Below are positions 34,290-59,291 of a stretch of 64,000 nt of DNA, one piece after another (the stretch's first letter is position 1; each line of letters begins with the position of its first letter). The position numbers were made by a program, and so were the translations under genes. The notes under the pieces were generated by a model. It had not been told where the DNA came from, ran no database searches, and worked only from the letters and a program-made list of their open reading frames with translations. This DNA is from Paramecium tetraurelia (lineage: Eukaryota), in NCBI GenBank assembly GCA_000165425.1, contig CT868252.1:248001-312000 (forward strand). Reading direction: 5' to 3'.

Positions 34290-34602
34290 NNNNNNNNNNN
34301 NNNNNNNNNNNNNNNNNNNNNNNNNNNNNNNNNNNNNNNNNNNNNNNNNNNNNNNNNNNNNNNNNNNNNNNNNNNNNNNNNNNNNNNNNNNNNNNNNNNN
34401 NNNNNNNNNNNNNNNNNNNNNNNNNNNNNNNNNNNNNNNNNNNNNNNNNNNNNNNNNNNNNNNNNNNNNNNNNNNNNNNNNNNNNNNNNNNNNNNNNNNN
34501 NNNNNNNNNNNNNNNNNNNNNNNNNNNNNNNNNNNNNNNNNNNNNNNNNNNNNNNNNNNNNNNNNNNNNNNNNNNNNNNNNNNNNNNNNNNNNNNNNNNN
34601 NN
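34290..34602. other. Assembly gap (313 N)
   Basis: Run of N. Confidence 1.
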
Positions 34603-45262: not shown

Positions 45263-47577
45263 TCAGATATTTAATGTCTTTATCAGGTTTCTAACCTCCT
45301 TGTACAAATTACTGAAATATCCTTCCACTTTGAATCCTTACTTTGTTTTACTTACTATAACCTAGCCATTATTCAAACTTATCTGACAAAATCCTAATTC
45401 CAATTTTAAATCCCCTCTCTTCTTTAATTCTTCATACAAGGCCAACAACTAAATATTCTAATGGCAAATCGGTTTTTTATTTTAGGTTGCCACCAACTTT
45501 AAAATCTAACTCATAGTTTGGGTATTTCTGAAGATTTTTAATTCCAATTTCCCTTTTACTTATATAGCTGATCTAATCTCAATCTATTTTTCAGACATTT
45601 CTACAAAAGGTAAATTTTATCCATCATTTAAAGAAATAAGTGATTATGCTTGGCTTTATTTTGCTACTGCTAATTACACACCACCTTGTCGAGGTTTTGT
45701 ACTTGGATTTAATATTAATAAATTCTAAGGGTTTAAATATTCTAGAAGCATTTAAGCATTTCTTAAATTTTAAGGTAGTTATTTAACAGATACTGTTGCT
45801 TAAACTGTCAAAACTTTTTAATTCTAAACTTTGTTCATATTAGGCATAGCAAATGTTGATTCTTGCAACTTCTATTTTTCATTCTCAGCATCTTATTCTT
45901 CTTCCATTTATTAGGTTTGTGTTTCTATTTATTATCTTCTCTTGCTCTTCATTAACTTAATATGTTTAGGTATATCTGAACCATAATCATCTCTTAAGTG
46001 AAGTTATTATATCGGTCTAAGTGGCTTGTCCAATTAAACTGTTGAAAATTATATTTATTCTTTAATATAGTCAATTCAAATATACCTTTAATTTCAGTAT
46101 CGATAAAATACTATTAATTATGTGACTTATAATTATTTTTATCAAATAAGGGTTCAAGGTTTGGTTTCTAATCACTAACAACTGAAAATTGATCATCTGT
46201 CTTTTAGTTACCAATATCCACACTCTGAGTTTCCACTAAATCAGTTGTACTTCCAGGCAAGTAAGTTGTACTCGGCGCATTAGATATAATTTTATTTTCC
46301 TTCTCGTTTGTTTTTAATAATAATCTAAATTAATAAATATCATTTACTTTCTTATATAGTTTAAATTTATTGAATAGGATTCCTTGATTTATAAATTCAA
46401 TTCAAAACTCTTCCTAATTTTCCCCATATTTTCATTAATTAAACAAGGTGGCTTGTCAAAAATAATAATTGTATTGTTTGGATCAGTTAATAAATTCTCT
46501 TGAAAGAAGGGACCAGAAAATAAATTATTATAGGATGTTAGTATAATTTATGATTTAATTTTAGATTAATTATCATAATTAAGCGATTAAATGTTATCCC
46601 AACATAAAAATTCTCCAAATGTCCTTGCTTTATCAACTAAATCAAGATATAAAACATTTATATCCCATTTCATTCCTACATACTTCTCATTTTCCTTAAA
46701 TATTTAATGTAGAGATTTAATTCCCTCCAAAATTCTCTCATTAGGGTAAAATGCAAATATTAATTATCCTTATTACTTTTTATGATATAAACTTAATTCT
46801 TCTTCCATTTTAGTCTTAATAAAGAATTAAGGAGGAATACTCAATTAATTGATTTATGGTTATACTATTTCCTTGGGATAATTCTCCAAAATAAGTAAAT
46901 CAACAATTTCTCTATGAAGAAGTGATTATTTTTAATTTTTAATTAACAATCGTTCAATATTCAAAGAATCGATGTGCAATTCTTTTATCATATTATAATC
47001 TGTGATGTAGATAATATTTAATGTGTTCACTTAAATTTTCCATGCACATGCACCTATAACCTTACCTGCTCTAATAGGACAAACAGTAACTTAAAACAAT
47101 CCATTCTCAAACATCATAGTTTCATTCTGTCCAAATTTTAATGGTTTAATTTGACGATATGCATCATCTGCAGCATCTAAAATTCTCTTCCAATCTTATT
47201 TAAAATCTTCTTCCATAATTTCTTTTTTAAGAAATGCTTATTATAAGTGTATCAATTGATCTACAAAGTTTCTGACTCCAAATTCAATTATTGGGCTTGT
47301 AGATAAAGTTTTTATTTAGAATTCAGAAATTAAAGGGAGACCTCCAGCATACTCAATTGATGGTTATGATAGTAGCACTAATTTAGACTATAATAGATTC
47401 ATTCATTACTTTCTAAATTTTATTCATATAATGCTTAATGTGATTGCATTCCAATCTTTAATTCAAACCACAATCTAACATGATTTATAATTTGTGATTT
47501 TTCTATTCAATTATCAATAACAAACACAATGCTCCATTTTCAGAAATGGTTTATACACTAAAAACTTCCACTTTCAT
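45263..47577 (-). CDS. CPSF2: Cleavage and polyadenylation specificity factor 100 kDa subunit (inactive MBL/beta-CASP)
   Basis: IMLDCG, VLLSQPSIEYAGGLP, IRAGKVIGACAWKI, IIYITDYNMIKELHID; C-terminus VEGYFSNLYKEVRNLI. Confidence 0.8.
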
Positions 47578-47639
47578 TTTAATCTAAAAATATAAAAATA
47601 CAAATAAATTCACTATTATTGTTAATAACATCTATAATA

Positions 47640-48400
47640 TGAATTATTAATTAAAAATTGCTTCAATCCTATTTTCTTTCTTTTCAGATGGTGTTTTAGG
47701 CCACGCTGAAATTTCACTGAAAAATAATAGTGGATAAAATTTTTGAGCTATTTTCTTAGACTTTAATTCTGATTGTATAACTAGAAATTTGTTAAAGAAT
47801 TTATTAACAAGTTGATTAAAAAAAGTGTGTATGATAAGGAAATAATCTTCAATGTTATTTAAAGAAGATAATAGGAGAGCAGTAGTAAAATTAGAAAATG
47901 ATGTACAGTTTATAATAAATTTAACAGCATATGATAGTATTAATTGATTTAATTAAATCAATTAAGTAATTGAATACCAGGAAATTTATATCCAAGAATT
48001 ATTTTGAAATAGATTAGTAAATAATTTTATTCATAAGATATTGTGAAAAATTTTAAAGTAGTAGCGAAATTCCTAATAAACAATTCTAGATTAAGCATAA
48101 TAAATTGTACGAAGAATTCTAAGTAATTATTATCCTTAGATTCTTATTCACTTAAAACAATGGGATATGAAAAATGAATGCCTTTTGAAATATCATTTGA
48201 TACCGATTAAGAAACACTTAAATTTATAAATTAAATAAGGCTAAAGATAAAATAAAAATGCATCGTTCAGTATTTTTTCCAAAGAAAAGATATTCTTTTT
48301 AAGTTAAAAGCAATGATATGATCTAAATTATTTTATAATTTTGAATTTAATATTGTAGGTATATTTTTTAAACTTGGAGATCTATGGGGATGAGATAATA
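47640..48400 (+). pseudogene. Possible decayed gene remnant
   Basis: Short coding-like segments (MNYQLKIASILFSFF..., EDNRRAVVKLENDV...) broken by TGA and frame changes. Confidence 0.25.
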
Positions 48401-48438
48401 AGAAAATTATAAATAACTTTGGTAATATTGATAATTGG

Positions 48439-51400
48439 TCAACCACTTTTTATTTAATGGGTTACTTAACTGACTTCTTCAATCCATACTTAAGCTATCA
48501 TTTAAGGCTCCATTGAAGCTTATATTTTAGCAAAACCAAAGTATTATTTACCGAATTCAACAACCCGGACCAATGTCGTTGGAGAATCTTCAAAAGAACA
48601 AGCAACTAGCTCTATTTTTTCTCTTTTATCTGAAGGGAATTATTTAACTTTCTCCATTGCTTTTGTGGGGTATTATGCTTATCCATCAGTGTAGAAAAAG
48701 ATAGAATGGCTATTTATATATGAATATTTACGAACTAAAATTGTCAAAATCTGGATTGTTAGCAATTTTATCAAAAGCAAGTTTTAATGGTTCATCAAAA
48801 TCAGTTCCTCCACCTCTAAATTGTATTTCCTTTTATTAAACTTAAGCATCAGGGATTTCATAATCAACTACACATCTGGCTTAGTGATTAAAAAGTATAA
48901 TAGTAACCCTAGATTCAGGATTTTTTTGAATTTCTTAAAGAAAAGCCACCAAGCCTTTTTTAGCTGCTTCAAAAAATGCTCCTTCCATTGAACCAGAGTC
49001 ATCTAATATAAGAATATAATGGGCAGTTTTTTAATTTCCACCTAATTAAACTTCTTACTTTGGAACATAAAAGACATCTTTTCCAATTTCTTAAGTCAAT
49101 TTTATGCAAATCATTCTCCCAATATTATCATTCCAAATCTTCATGAACTTCTCCTTCTGAATATTTAATTCATCCTTACTAAGACATGAAAATATCCACC
49201 CATTATAAAGTTATTTGATATCCTTCCATTTTTTAATTATTGATGTTTCTAATAGTGAAATTTAATAGTCATCCTATATTTCTTCACATGTATATAATGA
49301 AGGATGACTACCTATTAAGACTCCAGTCATACCTATTTTAAAATTAAATATTACCTCTTAATTAATGCCCATTTTAACATTAGTGTTTATGACTACTATC
49401 ATCAATTTCTTAATCGCACTTCCTCTTACAAAGCGGGCAAAATTACAAACAACCGATTTATCTCAGTTATTAAGCATCTAAGTCATCTTATAATTTTAGT
49501 GTTTCTAATTGAACCTGAATCAAATCTGAATTTTTAATGCCCAATAAAATCCTTTATTTAAAAGCTTAAACAAAATTAAATAATATTTATATTTCTTCGT
49601 CTGACTTTTAAATAGTTGAACATAATGGTAACTCAAATCTGTGAAAATCTTAAGTTTAAAACACATGAATTTTATCTTATTTTATTTTTTCTAATAAATT
49701 CTATTCTACGTATCCTTAAAGACATCCTAAAGTTATTTTAAATAATAATTTAGGAGCTTCATCAGGGTTCTCCTACTATACGAAGTAGTCCTTTGCTTAT
49801 AGAGGAGAAATAACATAATCATATAAATATTTTGTGTTTGCATCCACTTTTTGAAGATATGTCTTCAAATCTTATTATAGTTTACTTGTAAATTTGGTTT
49901 GAATATCTGATTTTAATTTATTAATATTGTCTTTCACGAATCTTTCAACATAATCTGTGTGATTTTTTATATAATGTAGTCTCTAATCATCAGTTATACG
50001 ATTATCATTTCTTTCCAGAATATCTTTGTCTAGTTATTTTATAATATCATAATTTGACTCTTTATTAAATCCAGCCCAAATTTATTTAGCTTCTTCACAA
50101 TATGACCTCTGAAATCTTGCAATTGTTTAATTTATAATTTCTTCTGCTAATGATTATCCTCGAATTTTGCTTTGTTCTTTATTATTCTATTAAATATCAG
50201 CCTTAAACTTCTGATATTGCACTTACTCTTAACTACTCAACTATTCTGAAGCTCTCTCACATGATCTATACTATTTAAAGCACAAAACTCTCCAAATACT
50301 AAAAATGGCATAATAATATATGCATCTTTCTCCTATATCATTTAAAATCACACCAAAATCTGAAAATTACATATTTAAATCTTTTATTTTACCTTCTATC
50401 TTTTATAAAATCCTTTTGATTAAACCATAACTAAATTATTTAGCCTTCATTTCTTTAATTTCATCAAGTATCATTTAATGTATTTCACTATAGACTTTTT
50501 TCCATCTCTCATAATTTATATCGCTCATTAAATCTTCAATATACCTAGCAATACTTTGCTTAAAAGTATTTTCATATTAAGAGTTTTAATTTCTATTTAA
50601 GATATAACTAAAAATTTATTCACCTCTATTAATTTAAGATCCAGTATTTTATTTTAAAATCACCTATTACTTAACTGATACTAAAAAAAATTCTTTTTCA
50701 TTAAACCTTCCTTTAAGACTTTCTATTTCATTATTCTAGGACAGATCAGTAATCAAAACATGTCTCTTATAATAATTCATCAAGTTTTTACAAATTTTTT
50801 TTATCATATCGATTGAAGAATCGTATTAAGCATCTCCGAAATATTACCTTTCTCCAGGTTAAAAGCAGGAAGATAGCATATTTATATCAAATCTAGATTA
50901 TTTATTAACAGAATTAAATAATTATTCTGCTTTTAATTTAGAAATTTCATAGCCAAACAAAGAGAAATTTTGTAAAAAAGATGTAAATGAATACTTATCT
51001 ATTCCCTTTTCCTTTTTATATAATTCAAGATCAATAGACAAATCTTTTTATTTATATTTATTGAAATCTTCTTTTGTTAGATATATGATTTCTACTTAAT
51101 TAGAATAAAATTAATTGATTGATAAGACTTAATTAGGTGAACATCTTGCAATTTTCTTTTCAATGCTTTAATTAAAATTGTCATAAAATAATTAATTTTT
51201 ACTAGAATTTGCTATAAACATGAGTTAAGCTGTCGATAATTCCGGTTTTAATATTTCTAATGATGTGAGATAGTCAATTTATTTAGGTTTTTCTTTATTT
51301 AATTTTGCAATGTATTATTGTTTATAACTATTTTCATTTTTTGTTGTCAAAATATAGTTTTTGAAATTTTCCTTAATTACCTTTAACAACTGATCGCTAT

Positions 51401-54400
51401 AACCCATAAAACTTTTATCTTATTTTTATTTGTCTTATGTTAATATTTCATTCCATAGTTGCTTAAACTTACTTTCAATCTTACTTTCATCCTCTTTATA
51501 TTATTTTAACTGGTTTTCATTTCCAATTAACTATTGAATAAAATGGTCAATTTTTATAAAACCCATTTTCTGTTAAAAATTAGTTTCTTAAATTCTAATT
51601 TCTGATAGCATTGCCAATGAGATGGCTGATCTTTCACTATCAATTCTAACTTAAACCATATTTTCATATTTTTTGATTACCTTTTTTGATATTTTATGTT
51701 CATTTTTTATTTAAGTTAATTTTTCTAAAAATTCATTGTTAATTTAATCAAATTAGGCATTCATTGATGTAGTAAATTCACTTAATATATCATTTAAAAT
51801 TTCTATAGACAAGCTTTCATTTCTCTCTGATATATTTTAATGAATTTGATTAATAAATTAAATTTTTGTAGGATACTAATAATTGTTTATGATTTCATTA
51901 AATTATTTTCTCATAAATTGATTTTATTAATGCTAAATTAACTCAGAAAATTCAAGTAAATCAGGTAAGGTTATAATGCTTTTCCAAGTGGTTTCAATTT
52001 TTTCTATAAAATATTTTAAATTTTCCATCTATCTTCTTCCATCTAAATCGTCTTCCCTTCCAAACTTATTTACATATGCTTGAATTATTCGAATTCCTTC
52101 TTCATAAGCTTCTGAAGAGAAAGTGCCATTTAGAATTAACTGGCGCCAATCTGCATACACCCCTTCACTATCATTTTTTTTCCATAACTTTTCAGTTGAT
52201 GCAAACCCTAATATCTTAACATTGTCTTCAGTAATTCCAAGAATTTCATTATAATCTATTTATTCAGTCTCCTAATTTTAATTGCTTAATTCGTTATTTA
52301 AATTTGTAGCTATTGACACTAACTAGACTAAAAAAGGATCGCGATTATTGACATCATTATTTTAATTAAAACACCAAGTAATTGATTTTGTACTTGTAAA
52401 ACTTTTCATTTATCCTAGAGTATATATGCACATTTCAACTAATTCTCTAAATTATTTTGTTATATCTCCTTTCACGTTTACAAGAATAATATCGCTTATT
52501 GATAATACAAAAAGTGCTATTTTTTTATCAAATTCCAAATCCTCTTAATTTGGGCTCTAAAGACCTTCAGTATCCAATATAATAATGTAGTCAAATAAAT
52601 TATTAAAATATGCTTTATTATGCACTTTCAATAATTGCAAATATATTCCTTTAGTACATCTACCAACACTTGTCCAAAAATGGCATCCAAATATTTTGTT
52701 TAAAATTGTTGATTTGCCAGAACTTTGTGGACCTAATACACTTAAAACTAAAATTCTTTCTTAACCTTGCTCCTTAAAGTTAGATATTAGCTTTTATAAG
52801 AATGGTTAATCGATTTTTAATGAATCACCATCTAAGAATTCAAATGGTTCTCCTTTAACGATCATTTCTTTAACAATCTTTAGAAGGATCAAAATCAATA
52901 TGTGATTGTTAACATTATTCTCTTTAGGATATAACTTCTCTCCAAAATAATTCTATTCCAATATGTCTTTTTGATATTATATCAGAATTCTATTTCAATT
53001 AAGCAAATTATTTATCTATTTTTGTTTGCATTTAAATTATTTATTCTTATAAATAATAATTATTGCCATTCTCTCTTTGATTTTATAACTTCTTCTTTTC
53101 TCTATTTAATTGTTAAATTTCTTCATTAAGTTTCTAATTTTCTCTTTATAGTTTGTAGGTATTTTTTTCGTTAAATTTTCTAATTTTATCAACAAAATGT
53201 AGATATAATATATAGTAGTTTGGTCTTTTAAAAATATTACAAAATTAAATTAAAATTTATGTAGGTTTCTATAAACTAATAGAACTTTACAATTGTTTTA
53301 TTTTTAAACTGATTTAATTGAGTTTTTGTTCAATTTATTTGTCTTAATGACTCTTTTAAATTTTCTAGTATTCATCTTTCTCTTTTTTGATTTACCATTC
53401 AATACTTCTCAATGGAAAAGCATTCTAATTATAGAAGCCATCCACATGCTCCATTTAGATTTGCAATTCTTTTTCAATATCTTAAAATAGATCTTGAGCT
53501 TATTGAATTTGAATTTTTTGATCTTAAACACAACTTACCATGTTAAATATTTAGTTCTTGTATTGTTCTTATTTCAATGTGAAAGATTTATTTTTATTGA
53601 TTAAATCAAATAAAAATTATGATGCTTATGCAATTTCAGCTTACTTCATTTAATTATTTAGATCATTATCTGATAAATCAATTATTTGCTAATATTAAAT
53701 ATTAAGATATTATAATTCTGCAGTTTCTTTCTCATCTAAATCCCTTATTGAATTTCGAATTAAAAAACAAATAACATTTTATTTATTTTTAAAAGATTTC
53801 AACTTTTATAAATTTTATATTGTTTCTTTAATTTCTCTCTCAGTATCTAATTAAATAATCCACATCCTAAATAGAGGTAGGATATCATCTAAAATTTCAT
53901 AAGGGATAAAACCATGTGAGTCTGCAACTGATAAATTTCTTGATCCATTAAATTCAAAATCATACATAATATCTATTGTTTGCTTATTCAGATAATTGTT
54001 GTCTGATATTTCAAATTTATATTGTTTATAAAATATTTTATTAATTAAATCTGTTTTTCCTATTCCTTTTTTGTTAGTTGGCCAAACTTAAATTAATAAT
54101 AGAATAGTTTTCCTCAAATACATAGAATGTATTAAAGTTAAATGTTAGTTTGTCATATTCTCTATCTTTTGTATCGTAAGAAGTTCTGTATAGTAATGGA
54201 ATCGGATATTGTTTACTAATAAGTTTTAGTAGCATCACTTTCAATTCCTCATCAGCATTATTATAAAATATTTAAAATATGGACTTTTAATTAAAACAAC
54301 CATATTTGGTCCTTAATTCTTCTTATTTAATTATTTATTTATTAATAATGGTTAAGAATTCAGATGATGGTTCTCCTCTTTTTATAATATTAAAGAAGAA

Positions 54401-56654
54401 TGGTATTAATTATTTAAAAGCTTCAGGGTCTTTAACCTTTTGAATCCAATTCTTCACCAATTCTTCCTATTATTGCTTATTTAACAAAGTCAATGAAATA
54501 TTAAAATCTTCTAAAGATATGTTTAGAGATCTTGGATAAATATCACGCATAATTTTTTATTGTAGCTTTGTAACTTCTAATTAATCTATGCCAAAATAGT
54601 TAATTTTTGAGAATTTTTCACTATACATATTGGGATTTTATTTGCAAAACAATTCAGCATCAATCTGTAATTTTTATATTAATTTATTTTACCAAAGGTA
54701 AACTAATTTAAAAATATTTATTATCTATTCCAAACTACTTTCACTTAAAAATAATTCAAGAAAATGATTGAAACAATAGATTGATGGAAATATTGAAAGA
54801 CTTTCTATGGCTTTCTTAAAATGTTTCTGTTGATTTTATCCTTACGATTACCTGAAAACCTTATATAATACTGTTATAGTTGTAATATAATCATCTAAAG
54901 AAATCTGATCTAAATTTCTTTGATATATTAATAGATGTATTTAATCAATTTACAAGTATTAAAAAAGAGGAAAGAAAAAATTGGTGTATTAATTCTCCTA
55001 TTCTAACTGTTAGTTTATTTAAAACAATCTTCTTAAAACTTCAAGGAGTTAATAATGATTTTAAATTAAATTTTATAAATATGATTCTATTAAAGTATTG
55101 ATGAGCGCATTTTAATTTAGAACCAATTTCAACTGATCATAAGAAAAATAGTAAAGCATTTAAATTTTTTTTTCAAGTGGTAAATTTTCATCGTATTCAG
55201 CAACTTTTAGAATATTTTCTTTCTCAGTTTGACTCCTATCTTATGATAAAACAGAATAAAGTAGTTAAAAATTAATTATGCTTTGATATGAATTTTCTAA
55301 AACAATTCTAAGAATAATTTCTAATTCTTGAGGATAAAAATTTTATTTTTATTATTCTAATATCAAAACAACTTTAATTAAACTATCCTACTTCATAATC
55401 GTTTCTAATAGTTTTGCTACTTTGCGTATCTTTTCAGCACTTATATTTGTCAGCAAATTAAAAAATTTTGGATTTTATTATGAATATGACTATGAATTCA
55501 AGTTTACGACATGCTATTTTTTAATCAGATTATAAAAATTTTTCTTCAATAATAATTTCTATCAATTCGCTGAAAGACCAAATTTTCCATTTATCCAATT
55601 CATCTTTTCTGACACATTAATTTTTGTAATACGACTAAACCCTATTTATTAGCTCCATATTAAGTTGGTTATTTTCACTCACTCTGCATTAGATGTATTA
55701 ATCAAGTTACATATACTTTTATACTTTATTATTTTAGGCCAAAATTTTTCTATAATGATTGTCAAAGCTAATTAAACAGTAGAAACACATCAAATAGAAG
55801 ATATTTTAAAGATCAAAATTTATTGGTAATAATTTTTCTATCAAATTTTCAACAATAAGAAAATTTAAATTCCCTGTAGTATTATTATTTAATAATTTAT
55901 TCAATAATTGAATTATTGAGTCATGTAATATTTTTAAGTCTTTCTTCAACAAATTTAATATTTCTTATAGAGCTTTTAACTGAAGTTAGTCTTAATTTTT
56001 CTATTATAACTACTGATAATGATATTCAAATTAAATCCAACTATTACATAATATTTCTCCTAATATTTGAAACAATCCTGTTTTTTCTTAATCATTTATC
56101 TCTAATTCTTTAGGTAGAAAAAAAAAAAATATCAAATTTTTCAAAATAATAGAATTTAATTAAAATGAAGTATTTCTACACTACAACATTAATTCAATAA
56201 TTCTAAAGCCATGATGTTGAAGTTTTTCAAAAATATGTTTTTACCTTTACAAAGAAGTTGGGAATCTACAAATTACAAAAAAGTCTCTTTCTTCTAAAAG
56301 TTAATGAAGACTTATCCAATCTTTATTTTACATTACATTATACAGTCTATCATATTATAAATTAATCTTCTTATTTTCCATTAATCCGAAATCGTTGACG
56401 CTGAATGTCTGTAAAATCCTCCTTATCACTCCTTCATTTAAACTGGCCCTCAAATTAATAAGGTCACTATTGTTAGGAAATTGTGAAATGAGATATTCGA
56501 TAGCCAATTTTTTATCTTCTTTTTTTTTCAATTATCTGAGGAAAAGGTCTAATATTTTCTTAAAAACTTCTTCTGAAGAAAAAATGTTATTTGATTTGTC
56601 TTCAGCTATGCTTTACAACTCCAAAGTCTTATTGTATTTTGATAATGCAGACAT
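48439..56654 (-). CDS. Very large inducible GTPase (GVIN1/URGCP-like) with C-terminal VWA domain, ~2700 aa; three apparent +1 frameshifts
   Basis: YPIPLLY; degenerate P-loop KGIGKTDLIN; IGIELFWRE; GEPFEFLDGD; G1 VLGPQSSGKSTILN; G2 GRCTKG; G3 LDTEGL; GCLQFCPLCKRKC..H..GH; VWA MIDAS LILDDSGSM, GGTDF, FYTDG. Confidence 0.88.
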
Positions 56655-57437
56655 TATCTATTACTTTAATATTATAAAATTTATTATAATGAAAGTAAAA
56701 TATTAATTTTCAGTTATATAGCAAGGGAGATACAATTTTTCGTACAAAAATAACAATCTTAACAACTATTTATCTTAATTTAAATTATATCAAATAGGAC
56801 TTTGAAAATTGCATTATGTAAATGATGAAAATTCTACTAATTTCGTATTTCTAAAGATGTGAATACTCAATGTGCATACTCATCAAATTACTCTTAAATA
56901 CTAATAGTATTCCAATTTAATAAAGTAATCAGCTTCAGAATCTGGCATATTTCTTTAGTTAATTTTTAAACTCTTTTTAAGCCGAAGAAACTCATATAGT
57001 ATTAATTATCTTTCATTTATATGATGAGCAATTAGTGTTTATTTTGCCGAGATGTTCTCATAATACTAATATTATAAGATCTCGATTTGAGTTGATATAA
57101 GATTTTATGCTGTATAAAAAAGAACCCAATACAAAGTATAAAAAAAACCCAAGTAATAATGATTATAGCATTTGTATAGGTATGCTTTTGGATATTTGTC
57201 CCTTTTCTGTTAAAATAGATTGATCACTGATGAGTCACCTTATTGATTTATAATATAAGTTAATTAAGTAGATTAGAATCATTTTTATTTAATAATAATT
57301 TTCAGAGTGGATTATATTAAATTATCTTTAGAATTATCTCTTAAATTAATGTTAAAATGAAAAGACTTTGTAGTTTATTGGTTTTATTAACTAAAAGATA
57401 AAGATTAATTGAATATAATATAATAATAAAATGATAT

Positions 57438-59291
57438 TCAAATTTCAGCAAAAATTATATTGAATGTTCTTTTATTCCAATTGGAAAACATCCCATCTGC
57501 ATAATCCATAGGACCAGGTAGATTATTTTTTGGAACACTTTTTGAAAATCGTTCTTACTATTGATATAAATTTTAGACTATTACTTTGCACATAAATGGA
57601 GGAGGATCTTTCTTTTTCTTTTTAAATAATCCTAATTAATTTTATGGTGATTTTTCTAAATAAGGAGGTTCATCATCTTCTTCATCTTCATTTACTTCTT
57701 TTATCTTCCATCTTTCAGCACCAACACCAAATGGTGGTTTAATAACTGCCAATTTAGGATCATCTTCTTCTGGTTTGATAATTTTATTAGCAATTGTATG
57801 TGAATTAACATTATATGCACCTGGAGCTGGATTGATGTTTGGGATTGATAAATCCTAACTTTTTGGAGCGTGACTCATAAAAGCGTATGTTCCCTTTTGT
57901 TCTGGTAATTTCTTGTCTTTTTTTGCATCATCAAGTTTATCAACTTCATATGCCCCAGGACCAGGAACCAATAACTTTTGTTCTTTGAATCTATTCTCAT
58001 TAGCTCCAAACTATCCTAAAGGAGCCTTCATTAATTTTGAGATCAATCTCTATTCTATAGTATTCGCAGCTTTATATGACCCAGGAGCAGGAGTCTCTGA
58101 CTGTTATTCTTCAAACCTAGTTTTGCTTATCAAAAATGGAGGTTAAGCACCTTTATGTCGATGAGCAGTTACTTCCAATTAATAACTGCCAGGACCAGGA
58201 GTATGCTATGATTTTGATTGAAATCTTTTAGTTCTAGTTTTAATCGAGCCTTTAGCTTAAGATTTATTTAAAAATTAAGAAATCGTTTACTGAGTAGAGG
58301 CATTTTCATAGTAACCAGGACCTGGTGTTGCATCCTATATTAAATGATATAAAATACTTCAATGTAACTATATTCTGAATCAACATCAGTTTCTCTGGCT
58401 GTAGTTGCTGGATTAGTAGATTGATGAAAACTATATTATTTATTATCCAATCCTTTTTTGATATATCCAGTGTTGTTTTTGAGATTTTAAAATTTGAAAT
58501 CCGATTAGCGACTTTGTTTAGAACTGAATGCTGTGGTTGGTTTCATTTAGTACATAGGTTAGGATTGACCGCATATGTCATAATAACCAGGGCCGATAGG
58601 TGACTAATTGTCTTTTTTGTCTTAGCTTCTTGGCTTATGCCATGATACTCCTCTTGGTTTTGTATTGTTGAATGTACTTTTAAGATCGTACGATCCGGGT
58701 CCAATATCATAAGATATGTCAACAGGATTTTATTCCAACTGATTGTCTTTTTATAGTATTGAGTATTATAACCTTTATTCTCAATGTAGCCTTGATGAAC
58801 ATTAGAAGGAATTGAGGGTATGCTTAAGTATTTGTTATCCCTAGCCAATTGTTCCAAAACATTTAGTTTTTTAGGCCGATTGGCTTAGCCGGCTGAATGA
58901 AATTTCTTCCTTTCATCTTAAAAGTATTGAGTGGGACTAAGGATAAAATAAGTTGAGTATACCTAGGTCCTTCAAATCTATCCTCCTTAAATCTCACAGT
59001 AGTGGATCTGAAAACTGATATTGGTTTAGGTACTTCCAAAATTTTGATTTCTTATTCGTCTGATTAAAAGATTACTTTTTGGCACTCGAAGGAGCCTTGC
59101 AGGTTGTAAGTTCCTGGGCCGGGAATAGGATTAAGCTTATCAGATTTATTTATTCTTTCGACAGTTGAATTGAAGGGATGATGATTGGCCCTATTTTCTA
59201 TTTCAGGGATGTGATCATATTGTCCAGGTCCCACTAATTCAGTTTTTGGAATATACGTTCCTCTGTTTTCACTTCTATATACAAAAGCCAT
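57438..59291 (-). CDS. Sperm-tail PG-rich repeat (STPG/SHIPPO) ciliary protein
   Basis: More than 8 PGPGxY / PAPGxY repeats separated by F...RF motifs. Confidence 0.9.

Follow-up and report, generated by a model that had tools for sequence, protein, structure and literature searches.

An intact giant GTPase gene of the VLIG/GVIN branch with a C-terminal VWA domain in Paramecium tetraurelia

GVIN1 and the Paramecium locus

GVIN1/VLIG-1 and URGCP are large GTPases of animals that share a G-domain family. According to a recent preprint (10.1101/2025.03.24.645074), human GVIN1 is predicted to contain two LG domains and to dimerise through them, it coats B. thailandensis, and GVIN genes are found in most vertebrate genomes. 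That coat around Burkholderia thailandensis was the first cellular function of GVIN1 and, by the same part of this source, was reported only in 2025. We found no paper on a GVIN/VLIG-type GTPase family in protists, and a term search of Kaur et al. 2020 (PMC7159879) found no occurrence of VLIG, GVIN, URGCP, GBP, dynamin or ciliate.

Here we analysed a window of 64,000 nucleotides from Paramecium tetraurelia (contig CT868252.1). A preliminary description of this window had proposed a gene of about 2700 codons at 48439..56654, encoding a GVIN1/URGCP-like giant GTPase fused to a VWA domain. Pfam, a fold match and a complete MIDAS all agree with this fusion, and the gene occupies the same coordinates on the minus strand, with a product of 2,722 aa after correction of three assembly errors. 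The protein consists of a lineage-specific N-terminus, two GTPase domains (LG1 and LG2), a long middle region, a Cys/His module and a VWA domain with a MIDAS, in that order. The proposed kinship with GVIN1 extends past the G domain, to the tandem LG domains and the C-terminal Cys/His module, which both proteins have in common.

Gene structure and assembly errors

The gene (48439..56654, minus strand) reads from an ATG at 56654..56652 to a TGA at 48441..48439 in the ciliate code (table 6), and has three exons when the assembly errors are discounted. RNA-derived contigs show just two introns, each of 22 nt and of the form GTA..TAG. Intron 1 (49333..49354, minus strand) has been removed in the X17 contig but is still present in that of X20, and intron 2 (48710..48731, minus strand) is spliced out in both. 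Four independent runs were used (X6, X15, X17 and X20, the last being RNA-seq), which gave DNA- and RNA-derived contigs. As regards expression of the giant GTPase gene these runs bear on transcription only, and transcripts were present in both of the RNA-derived runs, which came from ordinary cultures. The corrected product aligns from end to end with its ortholog P0001 (2,731 aa).

The reading frame of the window is broken at three sites. At 55539, an extra base within an A/T run, absent from the contigs of all four runs, creates a false stop and a truncated public model of 406 aa; this truncated ORF has the same sequence as P0244. A second extra base, at 54064..54065, is absent in three of the four runs (missing at 54064 in X6 and at 54065 in X15 and X17), X20 having no cover there. 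The third, at 52878, lies just upstream of the G domain and is again absent from 4/4 runs. The public model of 1,460 aa begins at an internal Met directly after it, and aa 1263-2722 of the corrected product match P0121 without a difference. Because the independent contigs lack the extra bases, we attribute the three frame breaks to single-base errors of the assembly rather than to real frameshifts. To account for the frame changes, introns at 54216..54186, 54087..54066 and 52874..52850 were considered and rejected, given that P0001 reads through and the contigs are one base shorter. Programmed +1 frameshifting, for which an AAA codon is found at each of the three sites, was also rejected, since RNA- and DNA-derived contigs simply do not have the base. 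Short-sided joints in the DNA runs, with sides of 20-26 letters, were taken as chance or paralog matches.

The three frame breaks and the fragmentary public models would fit a pseudogene undergoing decay in a region of fast turnover, with a truly broken frame and truly gene-poor flanks. However, this explanation is already refuted by the absence of all three extra bases from independent DNA- and RNA-derived contigs. In addition, the corrected frame is open over 2,722 codons in a code whose sole stop is TGA, the functional motifs are intact and both introns are spliced. We regard decay as extremely improbable; this Paramecium gene is intact and is transcribed. In practical terms, users of the reference sequence meet three single-base errors in this gene, and the public models (406 aa and 1,460 aa) cover only fragments of it.

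The flanks (47.6-48.4 and 56.7-57.4 kb) had been described as lacking clean genes, and indeed none of the four ORFs tested there had a Pfam match and no RNA contig covered them. They are AT-rich spacers between genes, about 1.0 kb and 0.8 kb long. The accompanying suggestion of a fast-turnover locus found no support, as the flanks are plain intergenic DNA and the adjacency to the neighbouring CPSF gene is apparently kept in P. primaurelia. In that species, the orthologs of the giant GTPase gene and of CPSF both lie on contigs of 558,834 bp, which suggests that they share one contig.

Domains of the giant GTPase

The canonical VLIG/URGCP-type GTPase domain, LG2 (51840..53163, minus strand), carries the G1 motif GPQSSGKS (52733..52710), the G2 motif GRCTKG (52664..52647) and the G3 motif DTEG (52574..52563). 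The intact VLIG-type G domain first noticed at this place is thus confirmed by its motifs and by Pfam URGCP_GTPase (PF25683), which matched the stretch 49356..52847 of the minus strand with E 1.3e-37 and 130 bits, against a cut-off of 55. The same family scored 143 bits in ortholog P0001. In addition, hhalign aligned LG2 to residues 1391-1782 of mouse GVIN1 at 99.9% (E 3e-33). Among 32 family rows, K1313 is conserved in 29, T1333 in 31 and D1360 in all 32.

Some of the evidence from LG2 would also fit a housekeeping GTPase for membrane dynamics, either of the atlastin/RHD3/Sey1 type or of a related one in trafficking, that remodels the ER, phagosome, trichocyst or contractile vacuole and has no role in defence. 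Among solved structures, the closest match by sequence was Sey1 (E 4.3e-10), and RHD3_GTPase scores 53.5 bits on the G-domain stretch, above the Pfam cut-off of 42.4. Transcription in ordinary cultures (2/2 RNA-derived runs) and the apparently kept place beside CPSF in P. primaurelia point the same way. However, the G domain did not group with atlastin/RHD3, since URGCP_GTPase outscores RHD3_GTPase on it by 130 to 53.5 bits, and the protein differs from atlastin/RHD3/Sey1 in its extra domains. A C-terminal transmembrane hairpin in the ER is the defining feature of those proteins, whereas no transmembrane-like segment was found by hydropathy anywhere in the Paramecium protein; the highest 19-residue Kyte-Doolittle mean is 1.59, on a strand of the G domain, and nothing comparable follows on the C-terminal side. 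Moreover, tandem LG domains together with a Cys/His module are common to this protein and GVIN1 but not to atlastin/RHD3, and the family diverges fast, with an inactivated P-loop in some paralogs. We therefore consider a housekeeping role of this kind unlikely.

The other large GTPase domain, LG1 (aa about 811-1043; 53524..54223, minus strand), is GBP/atlastin-like. It has a P-loop, QQKRIGKT (54076..54052), in which the first glycine is absent and GK[T/S] is kept, a G3-like DSHG (53922..53911) and an IR[N/D] motif. The true context of the P-loop is ...LSLANQQKRIGKTD..., as in 31/31 aligned paralogs and orthologs. The preliminary description had read a degenerate first P-loop, KGIGKT, at this site, a misreading caused by the extra base at 54064/5. 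The motif in fact reads KRIGKT, and rather than a stray degenerate motif it is part of a strongly conserved second LG domain. The best match of the LG1 profile was the canonical G domain of GVIN1 (E 3.3e-5). Structural models were those of the 70%-identical ortholog P0001 rather than of the window's own protein. In these models LG1 and LG2 are present as tandem large-GTPase domains, a likeness to human GVIN1 as predicted in the preprint (10.1101/2025.03.24.645074), and the top Foldseek match of LG1 was RNF112, which joins a RING to a GBP-like GTPase. The Pfam URGCP domain (PF25496), which lies upstream of the G domain in GVIN1, had no Pfam match in the Paramecium protein, and an hhalign comparison of LG1 with the URGCP-domain part of GVIN1 was not significant (E 0.24). 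The URGCP domain of GVIN1 may be a diverged counterpart of LG1.

Unlike GBP1/2/5, the protein gave no match to the Pfam GBP family on the window exon (E up to 0.1). A CaaX box at the C-terminus marks membrane-targeted GBPs, and the corrected Paramecium protein has none, ending in ...HQIKSG. It is also about four times larger than GBPs or RNF112, and has two LG domains and a VWA domain. In giant size it resembles GVIN1, and hydropathy revealed no membrane anchor.

The Cys/His module (aa 2396-2481; 49187..49466, minus strand) follows the pattern GC-x3-CPxC-xRKCD...HxHxCxNGH...C, with CPLCKRKC...CQNGH starting at 49439 and intron 1 lying inside the module. By profile comparison, this cluster, already seen in the preliminary description, is homologous to the C-terminus of GVIN1 (hhalign 95.8%, E 8e-9 over 82 columns, 51 rows against 40 mammalian C-termini); an earlier comparison with fewer rows had given 56% and E 1.1e-4. 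All 51 rows of alignment A2 keep C32, C36, C39, C43, G59, H60 and C79, and the module is probably zinc-binding. Its CxNGH may resemble the RZ finger of RNF213/ZNFX1, which we take as a lead only.

The VWA domain (aa about 2535-2715; 48463..49027, minus strand) closes the protein. Pfam VWA_2 (E 6.1e-10) and VWA (E 3e-05) matched the stretch 48734..49330 of the minus strand, and a fold search with the C-terminal model of ortholog P0001 returned a VWA fold. As had been proposed, the domain bears a MIDAS, here complete (D2543-x-S2545-x-S2547, T2609 and D2641, with DDSGS at 49003..48989), and a metal site is predicted. These five residues are kept in 30, 31, 31, 31 and 31 of the 32 family rows, respectively. 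Animal GVIN1 rows differ in having no VWA family in their Pfam lists.

The combination of these C-terminal parts could potentially serve a GTP-regulated scaffold for signalling or protein modification unrelated to microbes, in which the Cys/His module would be a zinc finger or E3-like and the VWA domain an adaptor, as in TFIIH p44/Ssl1 or Rpn10. The VWA fold matches do include TFIIH p44/Ssl1 and a proteasome subunit (chain 8amz_W), LG1 found RNF112 as its top match, and the relative P0081 has ubiquitin-like domains in its N-terminal part. Nevertheless, the VWA fold matches are generic, and no Pfam RING or zinc-finger family matched the protein. In the fold searches, matches to the VWA part (model residues 162-350) took up the results for the C-terminal model, and no fold was returned for the Cys/His module. 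Such a scaffold seems to us a doubtful explanation.

Two long regions have no known domain. The N-terminal region (aa 1-790; 54284..56654, minus strand) is lineage-restricted and diverges fastest, with 58-63% identity to the ortholog, the lowest of all regions of the protein. It had no Pfam family above cut-off and, unlike the domains described above, appears unrelated to GVIN1, with no match by hhalign; its residues 1-370 found 5 matches only among 1.84 billion representatives. The long middle region (aa about 1605-2390; 49482..51839, minus strand), a presumed stalk, had no significant Pfam match and is 67% identical to the ortholog, and its hhalign match to GVIN1 was not significant (E 0.11).

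Family, relatives and proposed function

The protein belongs to a Paramecium family in which each P. aurelia species has 5-9 long copies, counted among the 31 listed, so that the family is multi-copy and divergent rather than single-copy and conserved. Many Paramecium genes are expected to be multi-copy following whole-genome duplications. A second copy, 86% identical, was found on a contig of equal size, apparently the same contig. The P-loop lysine is lost in three paralogs. Identity to the ortholog is 70% for the giant GTPase versus 95% for the neighbouring CPSF gene, a comparison of rates based on this single housekeeping neighbour.

In a G-domain tree of 36 rows (unrooted, from a quick search and without an atlastin or GBP outgroup), 8 animal GVIN rows were split from the 28 others, including Paramecium, with an SH-aLRT of 100. 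The Paramecium family falls in a VWA-bearing clade with Amoebophrya and a rotifer, apart from animal GVIN1, and function may therefore not transfer from GVIN1. VLIG-type GTPase-VWA proteins include P0032 of Amoebophrya, P0056 of Brachionus, and P0033, P0038, P0040, P0055 and P0081 from ENA/JGI. These relatives share the major clade of the tree with Paramecium and have an LG1-like GK[ST] and DxHG, a G domain with GPQSSGKST, the pattern GC..CP.C..C...GH and then a VWA domain. They differ in their N-terminal regions, where P0081 has ubiquitin-like domains and P0043 has domains of the HTH type, and one ENA group has a VWA domain of the VWA_4 type. Five relatives were compared with NCBIfam and PADLOC profiles, with no relevant outcome (0 and 1 marginal match, respectively). 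A scan of bacterial and archaeal genomes with the ENA-group alignment found 3 loci only, and so this group is probably not prokaryotic. Our literature search found no paper on these relatives and no described function.

We favour, with about as much doubt as confidence, the reading that this is a soluble GTPase of 2,722 aa in the VLIG/GVIN branch of the dynamin superfamily, which would assemble in the cytoplasm in a setting of surveillance or defence linked to phagocytosis. GTP binding and hydrolysis at LG2 would drive pairing of LG domains and higher-order assembly, and LG1 would be a second site, either regulatory or slow. This model draws on the analogy with related large GTPases, namely the GBPs and the coats of GVIN1 on bacteria. 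A target or partner would be bound by the MIDAS site of the VWA domain and by the fast-evolving N-terminal region. GTPase activity, zinc binding, oligomerisation and a VWA ligand are all predicted properties. Surveillance or defence against things that enter by phagocytosis is the most likely setting, as suggested by kinship with GVIN1 and the evolutionary pattern of the family. To our knowledge, ciliates have no interferon system, a difference from the setting of GVIN1.

A broader proposal is that GVIN-type giant GTPases with tandem LG domains long predate the interferon immunity of animals. The VWA-bearing clade (ciliates, Syndiniales and rotifers) would then build coats, driven by GTP, around bacteria, symbiont compartments or phagosome contents that have escaped, with recognition by the MIDAS and the fast-evolving N-terminus, as a cell-autonomous immunity of protists homologous to the human GVIN1 coatomer. 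We put this forward tentatively and judge it less probable than the favoured reading.

In conclusion, a single-celled eukaryote also possesses three modules of the GVIN1 type: tandem LG domains, a G domain of the VLIG type and the Cys/His module. They are joined here to a VWA domain in a member of an expanded, fast-diverging family. Paramecium constantly ingests bacteria, hosts endosymbionts, and allows RNAi by feeding and GFP tagging. It may therefore offer a simple system for studying how giant GTPases recognise their targets and assemble.

Gene structure and errors in the window assembly

Between 56654 and 48439 on the minus strand, the ciliate code gives successive long open frames whose phases differ. 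A search with the largest exon recovered complete Paramecium proteins some 2,700 amino acids long. The best of these, the 2,731-aa P. pentaurelia ortholog P0001, aligned by tblastn as six collinear segments between 56657 and 48451. At three of the five junctions between aligned pieces P0001 is uninterrupted and the window has one base too many, each time within an A run of the coding strand. We compared contigs of four public sequencing runs with the window over 47400-57600. The extra base was absent in all four runs at 52878 and at 55539, and in three of the four at 54064/54065, where the fourth run has no cover. Short introns joining all of the frames were ruled out at these three junctions by the read-through of P0001 and by the independent contigs, which are one base shorter.

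The remaining two junctions are 22-nt introns (GTA..TAG). Both are spliced out in a contig from run X17, and a contig from the RNA-seq run X20 has lost intron 2 and retains intron 1 (49333-49354). Removal of the three surplus bases and the two introns from the window gives a single open frame of 2,722 codons. Since the extra bases are absent from independent contigs and the introns are spliced, we conclude that this is an intact, transcribed gene, that the window's assembly is at fault at all three frame breaks, and that a pseudogene is essentially excluded. These insertions split the gene, and the public annotation is therefore in fragments: P0244 (406 aa) is identical to the ORF ending at the first false stop, and P0121 (1,460 aa), which public records assign to the P. 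tetraurelia macronucleus, matches residues 1263-2722 of the corrected product exactly. Elsewhere in the window, 34290-34602 is an assembly gap of 313 N.

Domain architecture and comparison with GVIN1

The preliminary description of this gene proposed an intact VLIG-type G domain, and this was borne out. The large exon matches the Pfam URGCP-like GTPase (E 1.3e-37, 130 bits against a cut-off of 55), with RHD3_GTPase a far weaker runner-up on the same stretch (53.5 bits), and in P0001 the URGCP-like match spans model positions 34-346. The G1 (GPQSSGKS), G2 threonine (GRCTKG) and G3 (DTEG) motifs of this domain, LG2, are intact and almost invariant across 32 aligned family members; K1313 is its P-loop lysine. 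The degenerate first P-loop "KGIGKT" of the same description proved to be an artefact of reading over the 54064/5 error; the true motif is QQKRIGKT, which sits within IINxSL...IGK[T/S]xLIN, with DxHG and IR[N/D] motifs downstream. In this first large GTPase domain, LG1, residues G865, K866, D911, H913 and R966 are conserved in 32 of 32 rows. An AlphaFold2 model of P0001 residues 771-1101 (LG1; 51 aligned sequences) was confident (pLDDT 89.7, pTM 0.87), and its top Foldseek matches were RNF112, GBP2, GBP5 and GBP1 (E 7.5e-7 to 4e-5). Thus, given the LG1 motifs and the GBP-like fold modelled for the ortholog, the protein has two large-GTPase domains in tandem. Compared as a profile, LG1 best matches GVIN1's canonical G domain (E 3.3e-5), as expected if LG1 is a diverged internal duplicate.

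The middle region is long, matches no known domain and is followed by the Cys/His cluster. In an alignment of 51 sequences (Paramecium, Amoebophrya, a rotifer and environmental eukaryote-like proteins), the cysteines of this cluster and its GH pair do not vary. At the level of sequence, the alignments show constraint on the LG2 nucleotide-binding motifs, the P-loop-like site of LG1, the cysteine/histidine pattern and the MIDAS, the metal site of the VWA domain.

In profile-profile comparisons, the G domain matched 15 vertebrate GVIN1 sequences with 99.9% probability (E 3e-33), and the Cys/His module aligned with the extreme C-terminus of GVIN1, GCWKQCP[LF]C...H..DH...H. The latter match reached 56% (E 1.1e-4) with the Paramecium rows alone and 95.8% (E 8e-9) when the 51-row alignment was set against 40 mammalian GVIN1 C-termini. 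According to a preprint on human GVIN1, this protein forms a coat around B. thailandensis, is predicted to dimerise via its LG domains, and in an AlphaFold3 model has two LG domains joined by a helical linker, with further domains at the N- and C-terminal ends (10.1101/2025.03.24.645074). Given the matching G domain and Cys/His module and this GVIN1 model, the two proteins have a common module order from LG1 onward. The N-terminal 790 residues, in contrast, are unrelated to GVIN1 in profile-profile comparison, and the Paramecium protein has the additional VWA domain.

Family, divergence and locus

The matches listed include 31 long Paramecium proteins, of which there are nine in P. octaurelia, seven each in P. 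pentaurelia and P. sonneborni, five in P. primaurelia and three in P. tetraurelia. A second search found further, shorter Paramecium gene models, some of which are surely fragments. Whole-genome duplications inflate many Paramecium families. A FastTree analysis of 35 full-length rows resolved about eight deep lineages and placed the window protein as sister to a P. pentaurelia/P. primaurelia pair (support 100). Outside the window, a further gene model of VLIG type, P0126, is 86.4% identical to residues 702-1561, closer than orthologs are between species; its contig has the same length as that of the present gene (509,599 bp), and it lies 17 gene-model numbers away. P0126 is also the probable source of alternative contigs in the sequencing runs that carry 2-12 differences across 52068-52578. 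Three Paramecium paralogs (P0009, P0010 and P0015) have the LG2 P-loop GSGNS (Lys to Asn) and degraded G2 and G3 motifs but retain LG1, the Cys/His module and the VWA domain; they are probably the family's pseudo-GTPases. In the shorter Paramecium proteins P0128 and P0130 (1,131-1,341 aa), MORN repeats (PF02493, precomputed) accompany a VLIG-type G domain and replace the usual N-terminus.

The module order, including the VWA domain, also occurs in Amoebophrya, Brachionus and many ENA/JGI proteins. Two ENA proteins combine the GTPase-VWA core with other domains in their N-terminal part, ubiquitin-like in P0081 and bacterial-type HTH/GerE in P0043 (precomputed list), which suggests that this end of the protein can be swapped as a module.

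In an unrooted tree built from 36 G-domain rows (quick search in IQ-TREE, LG+G4), eight animal GVIN rows were split from the other 28 (SH-aLRT 100); the tree held no atlastin, RHD3 or GBP outgroups, so the root is not placed. Eleven Paramecium rows formed a clade (100) within an alveolate group of 15 (99), and P0128 and P0130 adjoined P0011, a related protein. A scan of bacterial genomes found only three bacterial loci. One, in a Saprospiraceae MAG (L001:4654-9708, plus strand), encodes a 1,684-aa ORF with a URGCP_GTPase domain (E 3.6e-34). Its protein nests beside the eukaryote-like P0081 (SH-aLRT 99), which may reflect acquisition of the gene by a bacterium or wrong binning of the contig.

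Overall identity to the ortholog is 69.8%, with values of 85% in the Cys/His module, 84% in LG2, 77% in LG1, 70% in the VWA domain, 67% in the middle region and 58-63% in the N-terminal region. The neighbouring genes, both on the minus strand, encode a CPSF-type metallo-beta-lactamase subunit with a Lactamase_B_6 domain (46074-47402) and a SHIPPO/PG-rich repeat protein (57441-58358). The CPSF neighbour and its ortholog in P. primaurelia share 95% identity. Because the P. primaurelia orthologs of the CPSF subunit and of the GTPase each lie on a 558,834-bp contig, the location appears conserved despite the fast evolution of the protein, judged against a baseline of one gene only.

The flanks (47.4-48.4 kb and 56.7-57.4 kb) had been taken as a hint of a fast-turnover locus. 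They are indeed without a recognisable gene (none of four flank ORFs had a match in a Pfam scan) and longer than the average intergenic spacing in Paramecium. However, they resemble ordinary intergenic DNA and nothing in them marks decayed genes: GC content is 21-25%, a search of both flanks found no tandem repeats, and cover is full in the DNA runs and zero in RNA-derived contigs.

Possible function

By analogy with related proteins, the LG domains would pair in a GTP-dependent manner and larger structures would assemble, and a partner may be bound through the MIDAS. A non-microbial scaffold role is unlikely in our estimation. We likewise consider a housekeeping membrane role unlikely; RHD3_GTPase is the runner-up Pfam family on LG2, and hydrophobicity along the corrected protein revealed no stretch resembling a membrane anchor. 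A role in conflict with microbes is favoured by indirect evidence, namely the kinship with GVIN1, the copy number, the inactivated paralogs and the fast-evolving N-terminus. Taken together, the mechanistic picture and a defence-leaning role stand at about an even chance of being correct.

Literature searches found no paper on the VLIG/GVIN-type GTPase-VWA family in ciliates or other protists, and database labels are automatic ("VLIG-type G domain-containing protein" or "VWFA domain-containing protein"). We regard the family as a protist-wide group that carries a VWA domain and is sister to animal GVIN1.
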